Source of the DNA: Escherichia coli O157:H7
Lineage (GTDB): Bacteria; Pseudomonadota; Gammaproteobacteria; Enterobacterales; Enterobacteriaceae
Assembly (NCBI RefSeq): GCF_013167455.1
Contig: NZ_CP038328.1
DNA: 64,000 nt
Direction: 5' to 3' (one strand)
A program made the position numbers and the translations under genes. This document shows positions 12,067 through 22,052 of this stretch, one piece after another. The notes under the pieces were generated by a model. The model was not told where the DNA came from. It ran no database searches and worked only from the letters and a program-made list of their open reading frames with translations. Position 1 is the stretch's first letter. The number at the start of each line of letters is the position of its first letter.

Positions 12067-14766
12067 ATGCGTAAATATCCTTTAAGTTTACTGAAGGATA
12101 AAAATATTGTGACTTTCTTTGATTTCTGGGGAAAAACCCGACGTGGCGAGAAAGAGGGTGGCGACGGCTATCACCTTCTTTGCTGGCATTCGCTGGATGT
12201 GGCCGCAATGGGCTATTTAATGGTTAAAAGAAATTGCTTCGGGCTGGCTGATTACTTTCGTCAATTAGGGATTTCTGACAAGGAACAGGCGGCTCAATTT
12301 TTCGCTTGGTTGCTGTGCTGGCACGATATTGGAAAATTTGCCCGCTCTTTTCAGCAACTTTACCTGGCCCCTGAACTCAAGATTCCGGAAGGTTCCAGAA
12401 AGAATTACGAAAAGATCTCTCATTCAACGCTGGGTTACTGGCTGTGGAATTATTATTTAAGTGAATGTGAGGAGTTGCTTCCTTCATCTTCACTCTCTTC
12501 TCGTAAACTTACACGTGTAATAGAGATGTGGATGTCCATAACTACCGGGCATCATGGTCGACCACCTGACCGTATTGATGAGCTGGATAATTTTCTGCCT
12601 GAAGACAAAGCTGCCGCGCGAGATTTTCTCCTTGAAATCAAGGCACTGTTTCCGCTCATAGAGATTCCCACATTCTGGGATGATGACGAGGGCGTTGAAC
12701 TTTTAAAACAACTTTCCTGGTATATCTCTGCAACAGTCGTACTCGCAGACTGGACGGGTTCGTCAACGCGATTTTTTCCACGCGTCGCACACCCAATGGA
12801 TATTAAAGATTACTGGCAGAAAACTTTAGTTCAGGCTCAAAACGCCTTAACCGTCTTTCCTCCAAAAGCAGAAACCGCACCTTTCACCGGAATTAATACG
12901 CTGTTTCCTTTTATTGAGCACCCGACACCATTACAGCAAAAGGTACTGGATCTGGATATCAGCCAGCCAGGGCCACAGTTATTTATTCTGGAAGACGTGA
13001 CTGGCGCAGGTAAAACAGAAGCGGCGCTTATCCTGGCGCACAGGTTGATGGCTGCGAGGAAAGCACAGGGTTTGTTTTTTGGCCTGCCAACAATGGCAAC
13101 GGCCAATGCCATGTACGATCGGCTGGTCAAAACCTGGCTTGCTTTCTATTCGCCAGAGTCCCGCCCCAGCTTGGTGCTGGCACACAGTGCCCGCACATTA
13201 ATGGACCGCTTCAATGAATCACTCTGGTCCGGTGATTTAGTCGGGTCAGAAGAACCGGATGAACAAACATTCAGTCAGGGATGTGCGGCCTGGTTTGCCA
13301 ACAGTAACAAGAAGGCGCTACTGGCTGAAATTGGCGTCGGCACGCTGGATCAGGCGATGATGGCAGTGATGCCGTTTAAACATAATAATCTGCGGCTTCT
13401 GGGGTTGAGTAACAAAATCCTGCTGGCTGATGAGATCCATGCCTGTGATGCTTACATGTCGTGCATTCTTGAAGGGCTGATCGAGCGGCAGGCGCGTGGC
13501 GGAAACAGCGTCATTTTGCTTTCTGCTACGTTATCCCAACAGCAGCGCGACAAACTCGTCGCCGCCTTTGCGCGTGGCACAGAGGGCCAGCAAGAAGCTC
13601 CGTTCCTTGAAAAGGATGATTACCCCTGGCTGACGCATGTCACGAAATCCGATGTGAACTCACACCGGGTAGCGACGCGCAAAGACGTTGAGCGTAGCGT
13701 CAGCGTGGGTTGGCTTCATAGTGAACAAGAGAGTATTGCGCGTATCGAATCGGCGGTAAGTCAGGGAAAATGCATCGCCTGGATCCGGAATTCTGTCGAT
13801 GACGCTATTAAGGTTCATCGTCAGCTGCTTGCCCGCGGCGTCATTCCCGCTTCCAGCCTTTCACTCTTTCATAGCCGCTTTGCTTTTAGCGATCGCCAGC
13901 GAATTGAAATGGAGACGCTGGCACGCTTTGGTAAAGAAGACGGTTCACAGCGTGCCGGAAAAGTCCTCATTTGTACTCAGGTCTTAGAGCAGAGCGTTGA
14001 TTGTGACCTGGACGAAATGATCTCCGACCTGGCCCCTGTTGATTTGCTGATTCAGCGAGCGGGGCGATTACAGCGGCATATCCGCGATATTAATGGTCAG
14101 TTAAAGCGTGACGGAAAAGACGAGCGTTCCCCTCCTGAATTGCTGATTCTGGCCCCCGTCTGGGACGACGCTCCTGGTGACGAATGGTTCGGCAGTGCCA
14201 TGCGTAACAGTGCATATGTCTATCCCGATCATGGACGAATCTGGCTGACGCAGCGTGTACTGCGTGAGCAAGGCGCTATTCAAATGCCACACGCAGCCCG
14301 CCTTCTTATTGAATCAGTCTACGGTGAGGACGTGGTAATGCCGGAAGGATTTGCCCGCAGCGAGCAGGAGCAAGTGGGCAAATATTACTGCGATCGCGCA
14401 ATGGCTAAAAAGTTTGTCCTGAACTTCAAGCCTGGCTATGCCGCCAATATCAACGATTACCTTCCGGAAAAGCTGTCGACACGTCTGGCTGAGGAATCTG
14501 TTTCCCTGTGGCTGGCTACCTGTATTGCCGGTGTGGTGAAGCCTTATGCCACCGGTGCTCACGCATGGGAAATGAGCGTTGTCAGAGTGCGTCGAAGCTG
14601 GTGGAAAAAACATCGGGATGAGTTTTCTTTACTGGAAGGGGAAGCGTTCAGGCAGTGGTGCATTGAACAGCGGCAAGATCCGGAAATGGCAAACGTGATT
14701 TTAGTCACTGATGACGAAAGTTGCGGGTATTCGGCCAGGGAGGGATTGATTGGCAAGGTTGATTGA
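12067..14766 (+). CDS. cas3: Cas3 HD nuclease/helicase (type I-E)
   Basis: 899-aa ORF; HD motif (LLCWHDIGKF), Walker A (GAGKTEAA), DEIH; alternative GTG start at 12109 possible. Confidence 0.9.
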   Translation: MRKYPLSLLKDKNIVTFFDFWGKTRRGEKEGGDGYHLLCWHSLDVAAMGYLMVKRNCFGLADYFRQLGISDKEQAAQFFAWLLCWHDIGKFARSFQQLYLAPELKIPEGSRKNYEKISHSTLGYWLWNYYLSECEELLPSSSLSSRKLTRVIEMWMSITTGHHGRPPDRIDELDNFLPEDKAAARDFLLEIKALFPLIEIPTFWDDDEGVELLKQLSWYISATVVLADWTGSSTRFFPRVAHPMDIKDYWQKTLVQAQNALTVFPPKAETAPFTGINTLFPFIEHPTPLQQKVLDLDISQPGPQLFILEDVTGAGKTEAALILAHRLMAARKAQGLFFGLPTMATANAMYDRLVKTWLAFYSPESRPSLVLAHSARTLMDRFNESLWSGDLVGSEEPDEQTFSQGCAAWFANSNKKALLAEIGVGTLDQAMMAVMPFKHNNLRLLGLSNKILLADEIHACDAYMSCILEGLIERQARGGNSVILLSATLSQQQRDKLVAAFARGTEGQQEAPFLEKDDYPWLTHVTKSDVNSHRVATRKDVERSVSVGWLHSEQESIARIESAVSQGKCIAWIRNSVDDAIKVHRQLLARGVIPASSLSLFHSRFAFSDRQRIEMETLARFGKEDGSQRAGKVLICTQVLEQSVDCDLDEMISDLAPVDLLIQRAGRLQRHIRDINGQLKRDGKDERSPPELLILAPVWDDAPGDEWFGSAMRNSAYVYPDHGRIWLTQRVLREQGAIQMPHAARLLIESVYGEDVVMPEGFARSEQEQVGKYYCDRAMAKKFVLNFKPGYAANINDYLPEKLSTRLAEESVSLWLATCIAGVVKPYATGAHAWEMSVVRVRRSWWKKHRDEFSLLEGEAFRQWCIEQRQDPEMANVILVTDDESCGYSAREGLIGKVD

Positions 14767-14863
14767 GATACCTGCGACAGGACTCTCTGAATAGTTGATA
14801 CACCGAAAAGGATGGAATGATGGACAACCGACCAGGGATGGTCTTTTTTACGAGAGGATACAT

Positions 14864-16426
14864 ATGAACTCGTTTTCACTTCTGACAACCCCGTGGTTGC
14901 CCGTTCGTTTTAAAGACGGAACAACAGGCAAGCTGGCGCCAGTCGATCTGGCGGATGAAAATGTTGTCGATATCGCTGCGCCGCGGGCAGATCTCCAGGG
15001 GGCGGCATGGCAGTTTTTGCTGGGGTTACTACAAAGCAGTTTCGCGCCAAAAGATTATCGTCGTTGGGATGATATCTGGGAAGACGGGCTGGAAGCTGAA
15101 AAGCTACGGGAAGCATTGCTGTCATTAGAACACCCTTTCCAGTTTGGCCCAGATTCACCTTCATTTATGCAGGATTTCGAGGTGCTCATGGGCGATAAAG
15201 TTCAGGTCGCTTCGCTACTGCCTGAGATTCCCGGCGCTCAAACAACGAAGTTTAATAAAGACCACTTTATTAAGCGTGGCGTGACTGAACACGTATGCTC
15301 TCATTGTTCTGCGTTAGCTCTGTTCTCCCTACAGTTAAATGCGCCGTCAGGTGGCAAAGGCTATCGCACCGGTTTACGCGGCGGTGGGCCGATGACGACT
15401 CTGATTGAATTGCAGGAGTATCAGGGTAATCAACAAGCCCCCTTGTGGCGCAAACTGTGGCTCAACGTGATGCCGCAGGATGAAGCCGACTTACCGCTAC
15501 CCAAAAAATTTGACGATCTGGTTTTCCCCTGGCTTGGCCCGACGCGTACCAGCGAACTGGCCGGTGCGGTGGTAACCGATGATCAGGTCAATAAACTCCA
15601 GGCGTACTGGGGAATGCCGCGGCGTATTCGTATTGATTTTAATACCACGACAGTCGGCAACTGCGATATTTGCGGTGAGCAGAGTGACGCGCTTCTGAGT
15701 TTGATGACTACCAAAAATTACGGTGCGAATTATGCCATGTGGCAGCATCCCTTAACGCCTTACCGTGTACCACTTAAAGAGGGCGGTGAGTTTTACTCCG
15801 TTAAACCACAACCGGGCGGTTTAATCTGGCGCGACTGGTTAGGCCTTATCGAAACGGGTAAGTCAGAAAACAATACGGAACTTCCCGCGCTGGTGGTGAA
15901 ACTCTTTAATGCCAGCAGTCTGAAACAGGCAAAAGTGGGCCTGTGGGGATTTGGTTATGATTTCGACAACATGAAAGCGCGCTGTTGGTACGAACACCAT
16001 TTCCCGCTGCTGCTCAATAAAAAAGAAGGCCAGATACCGAAGCTGCGGCTGGCTGCGCAAACGGCTTCACGGATTCTGAGTCTGTTACGGAGTGCATTGA
16101 AAGAAGCATGGTTCTCCGATCCAAAAGGTGCAAGGGGTGATTTCAGTTTTGTGGATATCGACTTCTGGAACAAAACTCAGCATCGCTTCCTGAGGTTAGT
16201 GCGCCAAATTGAAGAAGGTCAGGATGCGGATGAATTACTCGGCAAATGGCAAAAGGAAATTTGGTTATTCGCACGTCAGGATTTTGACGAGCGTGTATTC
16301 ACCAATCCTTATGAGCCCGTTGATTTGGAACGCGTCATGACCGCGCGCAAGAAATATTTTACAACATCGGCGGAGAAGCAAAGTGCTAAAGCCGCCAGGG
16401 AGAAAAAGCAGGAGGCTGCTGAATGA
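14864..16426 (+). CDS. casA: Cascade large subunit Cse1/CasA
   Basis: ORF 14795..16426; ATG 14864 after GAGAGGA; first gene after cas3. Confidence 0.85.
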   Translation: MNSFSLLTTPWLPVRFKDGTTGKLAPVDLADENVVDIAAPRADLQGAAWQFLLGLLQSSFAPKDYRRWDDIWEDGLEAEKLREALLSLEHPFQFGPDSPSFMQDFEVLMGDKVQVASLLPEIPGAQTTKFNKDHFIKRGVTEHVCSHCSALALFSLQLNAPSGGKGYRTGLRGGGPMTTLIELQEYQGNQQAPLWRKLWLNVMPQDEADLPLPKKFDDLVFPWLGPTRTSELAGAVVTDDQVNKLQAYWGMPRRIRIDFNTTTVGNCDICGEQSDALLSLMTTKNYGANYAMWQHPLTPYRVPLKEGGEFYSVKPQPGGLIWRDWLGLIETGKSENNTELPALVVKLFNASSLKQAKVGLWGFGYDFDNMKARCWYEHHFPLLLNKKEGQIPKLRLAAQTASRILSLLRSALKEAWFSDPKGARGDFSFVDIDFWNKTQHRFLRLVRQIEEGQDADELLGKWQKEIWLFARQDFDERVFTNPYEPVDLERVMTARKKYFTTSAEKQSAKAAREKKQEAAE

Positions 16427-16959
16427 GTATTGTAAAAGAGGAGCACAAAGCCACGCTGCGCAAATGGCATGAGGAATTGCAGGAGAAACGCGGCGAACGT
16501 GCCAGTCTGCGGCGTAGTACGACGGTTAATGATGTTTGTCTGACGGATGGATTTCGCCTGTTTCTGAAGAACAGACAAATAAAGTGGCAGGATGAACCTG
16601 AATGGCGTATTACCGCACTGGCGCTGATAGCCGCACTTAGCGCTAATGTTAAAGCCATTGATGAACGGCTGCCTTTTGCTGCGCAGCTGGCGGCGGTAAT
16701 GTCAAAGGGGCGTTTTACTCGCCTGTCGGCAGTAAAAACACCGGATGAATTACTGCGCCAGTTACGCCGCGTAGTCAGATTATTAAACGGTTCCGTTAAT
16801 CTTGACTCTCTGGCAGAGGGTGTCTTCCGCTGGTGCCAGGAGAGCGACGATCTGCTCAATCATCACCGCCGTCATCAGCGGCCAACCGAATTTATCCGTA
16901 TCCGCTGGGCGCTGGAATATTACCAGGCTGGCGACGTCGATAACGAACAAAATCAATAA
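16423..16959 (+). CDS. casB: Cascade small subunit Cse2/CasB
   Basis: 178-aa ORF; ATGA overlap with casA. Confidence 0.8.
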   Translation: MSIVKEEHKATLRKWHEELQEKRGERASLRRSTTVNDVCLTDGFRLFLKNRQIKWQDEPEWRITALALIAALSANVKAIDERLPFAAQLAAVMSKGRFTRLSAVKTPDELLRQLRRVVRLLNGSVNLDSLAEGVFRWCQESDDLLNHHRRHQRPTEFIRIRWALEYYQAGDVDNEQNQ

Positions 16960-16970
16960 AGGACTATCTC

Positions 16971-18026
16971 ATGACGACATTTATTCAGCTTCATTTGTTA
17001 ACCGCTTACCCTGCAGCCAACCTTAACCGTGATGACACCGGAGCGCCGAAAACCGTGGTCCTGGGTGGAGCAACGCGACTGCGCGTTTCCTCGCAAAGTC
17101 TGAAACGTGCGTGGCGCACTTCTGCACTTTTTGAACAGGCACTGGCGGGCCATATTGGTATTCGCAGTGGGCGTATTGCGCGTGAGGCGGCAACTATCCT
17201 GATTGAGAAAGGCATCGAAGAGAAAAAAGCCATCGAATGGGCGGCAAAAATTGCGGATTATCTTGGGAAAGCTAAAAACGACAAAAAACCAAAAGATCCG
17301 CTCACTAACGCCGAAACTGAACAATTAGTCCATATCAGCCCGGCAGAATTTGACGCCGTAAAAGCGCTGGCCCATCAACTGGCCGAAGAAAAGCGCGCGC
17401 CAAAAGAGGAAGATCTCGCTTTGTTACGTAAAGATCGCATGGCAGTAGATATCGCTATGTTTGGTCGTATGCTGGCGAATAAACCCGAATTTAATGTTGA
17501 AGCCGCCTGCCAGGTCGCGCATGCATTTGGTGTCAGTGAAACGATTGTCGAAGATGATTTTTTCACCGCCGTTGATGATTTGCGCCAGGCTTCTGAAGAT
17601 GCCGGTGCCGGGCATCTTGGTGAAACCGGATTCGGTTCTGCGCTGTTCTACACCTATATCTGCATCGATAAAGATCTGCTGGTCGAAAACCTCGGCGGTG
17701 ACGAAGCGTTAGCTAATCAGACCTTGCGCGCCTTTACGGAAGCCGCACTTAAAGTCTCCCCAACCGGCAAACAGAACAGCTTTGCCAGCCGTGCCTACGC
17801 CTCCTGGGCGCTGGCAGAAAAAGGCACCGAACAACCACGTTCTCTGGCGGCGGCTTTCTATGAACCCATTAATGGCACCCGGCAGTTAGATGTGGCGGTG
17901 CAGCGTATTACAACGCTTCGCGAAAATATGAATACGGTCTATGAACAGAAGACCGAATGCGCAAGCTTTGACGTGATGAACAAACAGGGAAGCATGAAGG
18001 ACGTGCTGGACTTTATCTGCGCGTAA
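16971..18026 (+). CDS. casC: Cascade backbone Cas7/CasC
   Basis: 351-aa ORF; operon position. Confidence 0.85.
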   Translation: MTTFIQLHLLTAYPAANLNRDDTGAPKTVVLGGATRLRVSSQSLKRAWRTSALFEQALAGHIGIRSGRIAREAATILIEKGIEEKKAIEWAAKIADYLGKAKNDKKPKDPLTNAETEQLVHISPAEFDAVKALAHQLAEEKRAPKEEDLALLRKDRMAVDIAMFGRMLANKPEFNVEAACQVAHAFGVSETIVEDDFFTAVDDLRQASEDAGAGHLGETGFGSALFYTYICIDKDLLVENLGGDEALANQTLRAFTEAALKVSPTGKQNSFASRAYASWALAEKGTEQPRSLAAAFYEPINGTRQLDVAVQRITTLRENMNTVYEQKTECASFDVMNKQGSMKDVLDFICA

Positions 18027-18036
18027 GGGGCGGCTA

Positions 18037-18783
18037 ATGAGCCAATATTTGATTTTTCAGCTTCATGGGCCAATGGCATCCTGGGGCGTCGATGCCCCCG
18101 GCGAAGTGCGTCATACCCATGAACTGCCTTCGCGCTCAGCATTGCTGGGGCTGCTGGCTGCCGGGGTAGGGATTCGGCGTGATGATACCGAACGATTAAA
18201 CGCGTTTAACCGCCACTATTCACTGGTGGTTTGCGCCAGCCGTAACCCGCGCTGGGCACGGGATTATCACACGGTCCAGATGCCAAAAGAGGTGCGTAAA
18301 GCGCGTTATTTCAGCCGTCGCGAAGAGTTGAGCGCCCCTGATCTTCTGAGCGCGATTATCTCCCGGCGCGACTACTACACCGATGCCTGGTGGATGGTGG
18401 CGGTGGCAACAACCCCCGATGCGCCTTACAGCCTTGAACAGTTGCAGGACGGTTTACGTCATCCGGTTTTTCCGCTTTATCTGGGGCGAAAAAGTCATCC
18501 GCTGGCGTTACCACTTGCGCCGTTACTGCTCGAAGGCAACGCGTCTGATGTCTTACGTAACGCATACCAACAGTATCAGGATAGTTTCCGCGAACTGAAA
18601 GTCTCACTCCCGAAACTTCAGGATGAATGCTGGTGGGAAGGGGAACACGACGGCCTGGTCGCGAGCAAAATATTACGTCGCCGGGATGTTCCTTTAAATC
18701 GTCAGCAGTGGCTGTTTGGGGAACGCACCATCAATCAGGGGCCGTGGCTCAGCAAGGAGGAACCATGTACCTCTCAAGAATAA
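18037..18783 (+). CDS. casD: Cas5/CasD
   Basis: 248-aa ORF; operon position. Confidence 0.8.
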   Translation: MSQYLIFQLHGPMASWGVDAPGEVRHTHELPSRSALLGLLAAGVGIRRDDTERLNAFNRHYSLVVCASRNPRWARDYHTVQMPKEVRKARYFSRREELSAPDLLSAIISRRDYYTDAWWMVAVATTPDAPYSLEQLQDGLRHPVFPLYLGRKSHPLALPLAPLLLEGNASDVLRNAYQQYQDSFRELKVSLPKLQDECWWEGEHDGLVASKILRRRDVPLNRQQWLFGERTINQGPWLSKEEPCTSQE

Positions 18784-19411
18784 CCTTACATACCGGCCAG
18801 CTTTCGCCTGCGCAGTTGCTGCATTTGGTGGATCGCGGGGAATATGTGATGCATCAGTGGCTGTGGGATCTCTTCCCTGGCGGCAAAGAAAGGCAATTTC
18901 TTTATCGTCGGGAAGAACTCCAGGGCGCGTTTCGCTTTTTTGTACTGTCGCAGGAACGCCCGGCGGAAAGTGAAACGTTCACCATCGAATGCCGGTCATT
19001 TGTGCCCGAGCTGCGTACCGGACAACAACTTTGTTTCAACCTGCGGGCGAATCCAACAATCTGTAAAGCGGGCAAGCGCCACGATCTGCTGATGGAGGCG
19101 AAACGGCAGGTGAGGGGGCAGGCGGAAGGAAGTGATGTCTGGTTGCATCAACAACAGGCGGCGCTGGACTGGCTGGCAGCGCAGGGGGAGAGAAGCGGTT
19201 TTACACTGCTGGATACCTCGGTTGATGCCTACCGACAACAGCAACTGCGGCGGGAAAACTCCCGGCAACTGATCCAGTTCAGTAGCGTGGATTATACGGG
19301 GATGCTTACGGTCACCGATCCCGGGTTATTTCTGCAACGTCTCAGTCAGGGGTATGGCAAAAGCCGCGCGTTCGGCTGTGGTCTGATGCTGATCAAACCC
19401 GGAGCAGAGGT

Positions 19412-19415
<4 letters not shown>
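18765..19415 (+). CDS. casE: Cas6e/CasE crRNA endoribonuclease
   Basis: ORF 18627..19415; ATG 18765 after AAGGAGG; 216 aa. Confidence 0.85.
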
Positions 19416-20625
<1,210 letters not shown>

Positions 20626-20720
20626 GTTATGTGTTCTTTAAAAATAAGGAAATGTTTGAATTTAGTTGGTAGATTGTTGATGTGGAATAAATTTGTTTAA
20701 AAACAGATATGTATGCTTAG
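20626..20720 (+). promoter_or_regulatory. CRISPR leader (AT-rich)
   Basis: 95-bp AT-rich stretch between cas2 stop and first repeat. Confidence 0.7.
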
Positions 20721-20993
20721 TGTGTTCCCCGCGCCAGCGGGGATAAACCGTCACCAAAACAGTGACAAAAACTGTCACCAAAGTGTTCCCCGCGCCAGCG
20801 GGGATAAACCGCTCATATTCGGATTGATCGTGTGTTTCGGTTTGTGTTCCCCGCGCCAGCGGGGATAAACCGGCCCAGGGATTTGTTCAATCCAGCGTGC
20901 CGCTGTGTTCCCCGCATCAGCGGGGATAAACCGGGCGCACTGGATGCGATGATGGATATCACTTAGAATTCCCCGCCCCTGCGGTAGAACACC
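20721..20993 (+). CRISPR. Type I-E CRISPR array: 4 full 29-bp repeats, four 32-bp spacers, degenerate terminal repeat
   Basis: Repeat GTGTTCCCCGCGCCAGCGGGGATAAACCG at 20721, 20782, 20843; variant at 20904 (GCATCA loop); degenerate copy 20965..20993. Confidence 0.95.
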
Positions 20994-21014
20994 CAGCTCC
21001 CATTTTCCAACCCA

Positions 21015-22052
21015 TCAAGACGCCTTCGCCAACTCCTTCACCAGCGGTAGCATTATCCGCATAACGTCACGGCAGCGACGTTCTATTCTTCCAGGAAGTG
21101 CTTTATCAATATGTTGCTGATTATCCAGTCTTACGTCATGCCAGCTATTTCCCGCAGGGAATGCGGCTGTTTTTGCGCGTTGCTGATAACCATCTTTATT
21201 CCCAAGATTCCAGTTTGTCGCTTCCACCGAAAGTACAGCAATGCCCGCTTTGTCGAATATTTCTGCGTCATTACAACATCCAGTGCCTTTCGGATAATTT
21301 TTATTCAAACCCGGATTGGTCGTTGCGGCAATTCCATGACTACGCGCAATTGCCAGCGCCCTGTCGCGCGTTAATTTCCTTACTGCTTCAGGGGTTTTTA
21401 CACCGCTGTTGAAATACAATTTATCGCCAACAATTAAGTTATCGAGATTAATCACCAGCAGCGTATTTTTCTTTTCGGTGTCACTCATCCGCTTGAGTAA
21501 ATTCTCAGCGCCTAATTTCCCTTCCTCTTCTCCACTGGTCGCCACAAATCGAATACCATACTCGGTAGGCGTATTTTTCAGGCGTTCTGCCAGTTCCAGC
21601 ATGACACCTAAACCTGCGGCGTTATCATCCATTCCTTGTAACGTCAGCCCGCCGAGATTGGCATCTGCATCTGCGTCGCTCTGCGGGGCATAGGTATCCA
21701 GATGCGCCATAATAATGATCTGCTGCGGCGCTTTGCCTTCATGAGCGGCAATCACCGTACTTCCCGTCACGTTGTGCCAGTTTTTGCGGTTATCGCGGGC
21801 GGTATAAATATATCGGCTATTAAACGTACGAATATCACTGCGGTAACCCATTTGCTGAAACTGTTGCCGAATATAATCGGCAGATAACATTTCTGCGGGT
21901 GTTCCGGTCATTCGTCCCGGAAAGAAAGTGGCAATATGTCGCGCCTGTGTATTGGCAAAATCGCCAGGTTTAGGTGACGAGGCGTGTACGGGGAGAATAA
22001 AGCATACGCCGAGCGCCAGGGCAGCGGTACGGTGGCGCAATGCGGAAAACAT
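21015..22052 (-). CDS. iap: alkaline phosphatase isozyme conversion aminopeptidase
   Basis: 345-aa ORF with signal peptide; position between CRISPR and cysD. Confidence 0.85.
   Translation of the reverse strand: MFSALRHRTAALALGVCFILPVHASSPKPGDFANTQARHIATFFPGRMTGTPAEMLSADYIRQQFQQMGYRSDIRTFNSRYIYTARDNRKNWHNVTGSTVIAAHEGKAPQQIIIMAHLDTYAPQSDADADANLGGLTLQGMDDNAAGLGVMLELAERLKNTPTEYGIRFVATSGEEEGKLGAENLLKRMSDTEKKNTLLVINLDNLIVGDKLYFNSGVKTPEAVRKLTRDRALAIARSHGIAATTNPGLNKNYPKGTGCCNDAEIFDKAGIAVLSVEATNWNLGNKDGYQQRAKTAAFPAGNSWHDVRLDNQQHIDKALPGRIERRCRDVMRIMLPLVKELAKAS

Follow-up and report, generated by a model that had tools for sequence, protein, structure and literature searches.

CRISPR arrays decay at their trailer ends, where a degenerate terminal repeat and conserved ancestral spacers are found, and the iap-proximal repeats of Escherichia coli K-12 are said to have been first reported by Ishino et al. 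in 1987. The 3' handle of the E. coli crRNA consists of a seven-base-pair stem and a four-nucleotide loop, and the K-12 CRISPR system is repressed by H-NS (PMC5965381). Cas6e wraps the major groove of this stem with its beta6-beta7 hairpin, and the scissile phosphate is set at the stem base (PMC5965380, PMC3902920). CRISPR1 also serves in the CRISPR typing of STEC (PMC8924505), and the CRISPR1 arrays of other published O157:H7 genomes are indistinguishable from the one that we describe here, which lies in a window of 64,000 nucleotides (the whole stretch of DNA analysed) from E. coli O157:H7.

Among described systems CRISPR-I of K-12 MG1655 occupies the same locus, in the order cas2e, leader, array and iap. 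Its penultimate repeat, GTGTTCCCCGCATCAGCGGGGATAAACCG, is identical to the fourth repeat of the O157:H7 array, its last spacer is the same but for the final base, and its degenerate terminal repeat is homologous, with 1 nt inserted and three further differences. The two arrays differ in length, with 13 spacers in K-12 and four in the window, and in their bulk repeats, which start with GAGTT in K-12 and with GTGTT here, and in K-12 the cas operon belongs to the other sequence variant of the E. coli I-E system. The exact sequence of the shared penultimate repeat has been quoted as the repeat of the K-12 array (PMC9782134). The CRISPR1 array of O55:H7 has spacers 2–4 in common with that of O157:H7.

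Results

The locus and the anatomy of the array

We identify the array as the type I-E CRISPR1 (also CRISPR2.1, iap-adjacent) of E. coli O157:H7, situated between cas2e and iap. All eight I-E cas genes lie upstream on the plus strand and score above NCBIfam cut-offs, so that the operon is complete, in agreement with what RefSeq annotates at the identical locus in EDL933. The product of cas3 (12067..14766, 899 aa) passes the cas3_core and cas3_HD models, and cse1, cse2, cas7, cas5 and cas6e (14795..19415) pass TIGR02547, TIGR02548, TIGR01869, TIGR01868 and TIGR01907 respectively; the open reading frame starts that we list are mechanical, and the cas6e match begins at residue 47 of the frame at 18627-19415. 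They are followed by cas1e (19412..20335; TIGR03638, E = 4e-114) and cas2e (20332..20625; TIGR01873, E = 2e-39), both named as such in the EDL933 annotation. An AT-rich leader of 96 nt on the same strand (20626..20721) has 25% GC, compared with 53% for the whole window, and a simple-consensus scan of it found no promoter-like site. The trailer flank is formed by iap (21015..22052), an aminopeptidase gene on the minus strand that is convergent with the array and matches NF007568 over its full length (E = 5e-213), and cysD is the next gene beyond it. Every genome that we compared has iap annotated at this place.

We note that the cas operon is a non-K-12 sequence variant of the E. coli I-E system, for which the general I-E models pass and the K-12-trained NCBIfam equivalogs fall far below their cut-offs (427 vs 569 bits for Cas3, with model NF007248, and 103 vs 576 bits for Cse1; the two genes span 12067-16426). 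The segment from 20300 to 21400 is 100% identical to many O157:H7 genomes, including EDL933, TW14359, EC4115, Xuzhou21 and SS17. Automated annotation misses this short array: the RefSeq/PGAP record of EDL933 (L001, NZ_CP008957.1, 1923-2195) has cas6e, cas1e, cas2e, iap and cysD annotated and carries no CRISPR feature; where other strains have a longer array at this locus, it does receive an annotation.

A repeat finder, a pattern search and a scripted parse together define five 29-nt repeats at a 61-nt period, all read on the plus strand and separated by four spacers of 32 nt each. Repeats 1, 2 and 3 (20722-20750, 20783-20811 and 20844-20872) are canonical and identical, each reading GTGTTCCCCGCGCCAGCGGGGATAAACCG, with repeat 1 proximal to the leader, and this sequence is the conserved E. 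coli repeat given in PMC10910852. Repeat 4 (20905-20933) is the variant and differs from the first three only by the adjacent transitions G12A and C13T at 20916-20917. The terminal repeat (20966-20994), GAATTCCCCGCCCCTGCGGTAGAACACCC, is degenerate and matches at exactly 19 of 29 positions. The spacers lie at 20751-20782, 20812-20843, 20873-20904 and 20934-20965. The earlier note had recognised the same elements, with three identical repeats, a fourth with two adjacent changes and a last repeat matching at about 19 of 29 positions, and all of this stands; its coordinates do not, as each was 1 nt too low, and its intervals read TGTGTT...ACC, taking in the last spacer base and dropping the final G. 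It had also placed the degenerate repeat at the leader-distal end, which follows from the location of this repeat at the end opposite cas2 and the leader.

The array is not a product of chance. Dinucleotide shuffles of the window contained no match to the repeat at three or fewer mismatches, repeats 1–4 and the terminal repeat are the only ones among 127,944 29-mers on both strands with at least 19 matches to it, and the terminal repeat sits exactly in the 61-nt register. A two-base difference within a repeat can nonetheless raise the suspicion of a sequencing or assembly error in the window, and nothing beyond the difference itself points that way. Some 290 independent O157:H7 assemblies carry an array that is 100% identical to this one, and the variant sequence recurs in about 1,200 E. 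coli genomes overall, which refutes an error, and we give this reading practically no weight.

Two general searches did not recover the array. Tandem Repeats Finder missed it because the spacers are unique, and reported only a 12-nt periodicity within spacer 1. Rfam, searched with the region 20000-21600 and a permissive E-value, returned sub-threshold chance matches only (Chlorobi-1, snoRNAs and a miRNA) and no CRISPR repeat family, and Rfam is thus uninformative for this region.

Spacers and their targets

Spacer 1, the newest, has an iteron-like repeat inside it and matches at 30 of 32 positions within the replication protein O gene of the Proteus lambdoid-type phage vB_BPM-V3 (L015, 121-215). 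The match falls within a run of four TGTCACCAAAAC-type iterons, with TTG at the PAM position, and the target therefore looks like a lambdoid-type replication origin. We also note that spacer 1 carries TCACCAAA at both ends and a GTGACA/TGTCAC hairpin inside, and that its minus strand scores as terminator-like. For spacer 2 there are matches at 30-31 of 32 positions to major capsid genes of phages and prophages, among them those of four E. coli phages (L014, 41-72), with ATG, a permissive I-E PAM, at the PAM position. About 450 other E. coli genomes, those of ST131 among the examples, contain prophages with this target; O157:H7 has no second copy, and spacer 2 is thus not self-targeting. Our searches detected no target for spacers 3 and 4. 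Spacers 1–3 are confined to O157:H7, except that spacers 2 and 3 are also found in O55:H7, and spacer 4 is an ancestral anchor spacer common across E. coli.

Repeat hairpins

Each repeat was folded singly with ViennaRNA. Repeats 1–3 form a 7-bp stem, composed of U5-A22 and CCCCGC/GCGGGG, that is closed by a GCCA tetraloop, with a predicted energy of -15.2 kcal/mol, and repeat 4 forms the same 7-bp stem with an AUCA tetraloop at -14.4 kcal/mol. The lowest pair probability in the stem is 0.89 for every loop that we folded (GCCA, GUCA, AUCA and GUUA). The earlier note had assigned both changes in repeat 4 to the loop, with the stem retained, and had proposed folding as the check; when this is done the changes fall at tetraloop positions 1 and 2 (GCCA to AUCA), and CCCCGC/GCGGGG is unchanged and of nearly equal stability. 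The predicted structures of repeats 1–4 all have the form expected of a I-E repeat, with a 7-bp stem, a 4-nt loop and an 8-nt tail past the cleavage site.

The terminal repeat lacks the 7-bp hairpin. Only the top four stem pairs survive, and the predicted energy is -5.3 kcal/mol. For C6-G21 and C7-G20, both of them canonical pairs, the probability is 0, and in place of U5-A22 there is a U-G pair with a probability of 0.055. The base of the stem is mutated and the G21/A22 cleavage context altered, with 10 of the 29 positions changed in all. If processing is impaired at any repeat of this array, it is most likely at the terminal repeat and not at repeat 4.

Folding the whole pre-crRNA (20700-21014) gave a structure in which repeat 1 pairs with the terminal repeat across about 240 nt; we regard this as probably an in-silico effect because the other hairpins, that of repeat 4 included, form locally in the same fold. 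The 5' arm of the terminal repeat, UCCCCGC, is intact and can pair with the 3' arm of any repeat.

Conservation of the trailer end

The trailer end is not peculiar to O157:H7. A 156-nt query composed of repeat 4, spacer 4, the terminal repeat and the 3' end of iap, with matches counted at 80% coverage or more, identifies this block, with an identity of 93-100%, in 4,098 of 5,426 complete E. coli genomes. We fetched eleven matches spread down the ranking, parsed them together with the EDL933 locus to give twelve loci, and aligned the trailer ends. Ten of the eleven fetched loci share the synteny of the window, and the remaining one (L012, a derivative of E2348/69) has iap and cysD with the array absent; phylogroup B2-type strains such as E2348/69 have no trailer block and keep iap. 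In all 11 sampled loci with an array the last spacer is present with 0-3 differences and the degenerate terminal repeat is homologous.

In most lineages the polymorphism of the anchor repeat is confined to the loop, where the two variable positions read GC, GT or AT. The AT allele (AUCA) is present in O157:H7, in AML001, a derivative of K-12 MG1655 (L002), and in strain GF3-3 (L004). The GT allele (GUCA) is present in L003, L007, L008 and L009, and in L010 and L011 together with an added stem-breaking change, G19A. O121 (L005) and O145 (L006) have the GC allele, which is the canonical GCCA. The AT allele stands behind both I-E cas variants, with K-12-type cas1 and cas2 in L002 and an O157-type Cas2 (WP_000063176.1) in L004. 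A 60-nt query of the AT repeat and spacer 4 places approximately 1,200 genomes in the band of at least 99% identity. This count is the only clean one of the three, as those for GT and GC are upper bounds, inflated because BLAST merged the spacer-4 segment with a canonical repeat that lies at another place in the array, and we do not use them as frequencies. An exact scan for the AUCA repeat in one genome per species returned a single locus, in Citrobacter sedlakii, so beyond E. coli the AUCA repeat is rare, and the genome that represented E. coli in that scan is evidently without it.

Several of the sampled loci have features of their own. The cas genes have been lost to IS421 in L007 (68-1179) and L008 (250-1362) and the trailer block is kept, and in these two loci and in L012 (139-1387) IS421 and/or a hok/gef module stands in place of the cas genes beside iap. 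Loci without cas genes carry remnant arrays of two to five full repeats and the degenerate terminal repeat, or, in the E2348/69 derivative, no array. In strain 98210 (L009, 952-1346) seven consecutive leader-proximal repeats carry C27T, which would give the crRNA 5' handle AUAAAUCG, and this change has evidently been propagated through duplication of the repeat at spacer acquisition.

Variation in the loop and recognition by Cas6e

In the C. sedlakii array GUCA is the consensus loop, in about 25 repeats, and AUCA is present in one internal copy, and in E. coli MLI023K1 the GUCA repeats are leader-proximal and so the most recently duplicated. Changes in the loop are thus compatible with a working, growing array. 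Among 117 repeats of these loci, a small sample, there are three distinct substitutions in the four loop positions and three in the 14 stem positions, and the stem variants lie toward the trailer, each array having a given one in a single copy. These counts point the same way as the structural literature on Cas6e, and the loop looks free to vary as judged from these alignments. Processing by Cas6e at repeat 4 is probably retained, as the earlier note had proposed, and the comparative data strengthen this expectation, the AUCA repeat being maintained in about 1,200 complete E. coli genomes with a K-12 derivative among them.

An opposing reading is that AUCA weakens or abolishes Cas6e action at repeat 4, and that the array functionally ends after repeat 3, with the spacer 3 transcript lacking a 3' hairpin and spacers 3 and 4 reduced to dead memory. 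Selection on repeats at the trailer end is relaxed, and the terminal repeat next to repeat 4 is clearly decayed; the same anchor repeat carries the stem-breaking G19A in L010 and L011, which indicates that damaging changes are tolerated at this position, and the predicted hairpin of repeat 4 is weaker by 0.8 kcal/mol. In the literature we found no report of crRNAs flanking the AUCA repeat for either O157:H7 or K-12, and for K-12 this too is in keeping with impairment. In K-12, spacers 1-4 and 8 dominate the loading of Cascade, and the AUCA repeat there is flanked by spacers 12 and 13 (PMC5904413). However, the stem geometry and cleavage context of repeat 4 are those of the canonical repeat, recognition by Cas6e is described as involving the major groove of the stem together with its base, and GUCA, a one-step intermediate, serves as the repeat of whole arrays, leader-proximal copies included. 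A search of the literature found no test of loop mutants of the E. coli repeat and no explicit statement that Cas6e makes no loop contacts. On balance we consider impairment at repeat 4 unlikely.

Discussion

We have described here the trailer end of the O157:H7 CRISPR1 array, and the explanation that we favor, with a probability of roughly 0.85, is that of a type I-E array in which repeat 4 is a neutral loop variant that is still processed, the terminal repeat has decayed, and the two are part of an inherited anchor. Transcription of the array would run on the plus strand from the AT-rich leader that follows cas2e, with Cas6e binding the hairpin of each repeat, a 7-bp stem with a tetraloop, and cutting at its 3' base. 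Each crRNA is then expected to comprise an 8-nt 5' handle, the 32-nt spacer and a 21-nt 3' hairpin, following the architecture given in PMC5965381. With the stem and the cleavage site untouched by its two loop transitions, repeat 4 should still be bound and cut. The spacer 3 crRNA is predicted to carry the AUCA hairpin as its 3' handle, ending ...CCCCGCAUCAGCGGGG, and spacer 4 would gain the 5' handle AUAAACCG through cleavage at repeat 4. The terminal repeat is probably not a normal substrate for Cas6e, so that spacer 4 would give at best a non-canonical crRNA. There is precedent for such a product, as a crRNA with a single repeat and a terminator hairpin as its boundaries has been observed in vivo in E. 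coli (PMC5904413), and Cascade loading in vitro can do without most of the 3' handle (PMC4288178).

The history of the variant is plausibly one of neutral drift, from GCCA through GUCA to AUCA, in a repeat that never templates new ones. It is the leader-proximal repeat that serves as template for each new copy, a part that the trailer never plays, and the trailer anchor would accumulate mutations for this reason. Repeat 4, spacer 4 and the terminal repeat would together be an old trailer-end anchor, inherited across most of the species. The analysis establishes the anatomy of the array, its predicted folds, its gene context and the conservation of the trailer block, and both the processing of repeat 4 and the neutrality of its two changes are what we infer.

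A different view of the same conservation is that the trailer block is selected for a non-immune function, either in ending or buffering the convergent transcription of iap and the CRISPR array or as the source of a specialised non-canonical RNA, and that the loop allele is meaningful. The block is kept in about 4,100 genomes, including the loci L007 and L008 that have no cas genes, iap ends just 20 nt past the terminal repeat on the opposite strand, and non-canonical E. coli crRNAs with a single repeat and another hairpin have been reported (PMC5904413). However, a terminator scan found no terminator-like site at repeat 4 or at the terminal repeat on either strand, which leaves a terminator role of the block without support. 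Moreover, the loop is polymorphic (GC, GT and AT) and drift is seen in spacer 4 and in the terminal repeat as well, as is expected under neutral inheritance, and B2-type strains such as E2348/69 do without the block and retain iap. Retention may simply reflect that there is no identical repeat downstream with which to recombine. We regard selection for such a function as very improbable. We give similarly little credence to the idea that the loop alleles GCCA, GUCA and AUCA tune the affinity or turnover of Cas6e; were this so, the consequence would be altered Cascade loading of the crRNA from the penultimate spacer, or an altered non-canonical RNA from the last spacer.

The significance of these observations beyond annotation is slight. 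The locus is that of the published O157:H7 CRISPR1 array. The exact AUCA allele is present in about a fifth, and the trailer block in about three-quarters, of complete E. coli genomes, and both are in the K-12 reference. One practical point, beside the missing annotation of so known a locus in EDL933, is that pipelines for repeat finding and spacer typing should allow for loop variants and for a degenerate last repeat, since otherwise spacer 4, and possibly spacer 3, will be lost.

The nearest parallel that we found outside E. coli is the I-E array of C. sedlakii NBRC 105722 (L013), whose 29-nt repeat is the same except in the loop and whose terminal repeat is likewise degenerate. It differs in that its consensus loop is GUCA and not GCCA, its AUCA copy is in the middle of the array and not penultimate, and its spacers are unrelated. 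We also note that one 32-nt spacer, CCTCTTGAAAACGCAACATACATCACCGAGTT, is present there twice in tandem (5303-5395 of the reverse complement). Within E. coli, the variant repeat 4 and the decayed terminal repeat are a known, conserved feature of the CRISPR1 trailer that is not specific to this window, and nothing in them is novel. Set against trailer-end decay in general, the locus is a textbook instance, with the oldest spacer shared across the species, point variants near the trailer and a last repeat that is degenerate.
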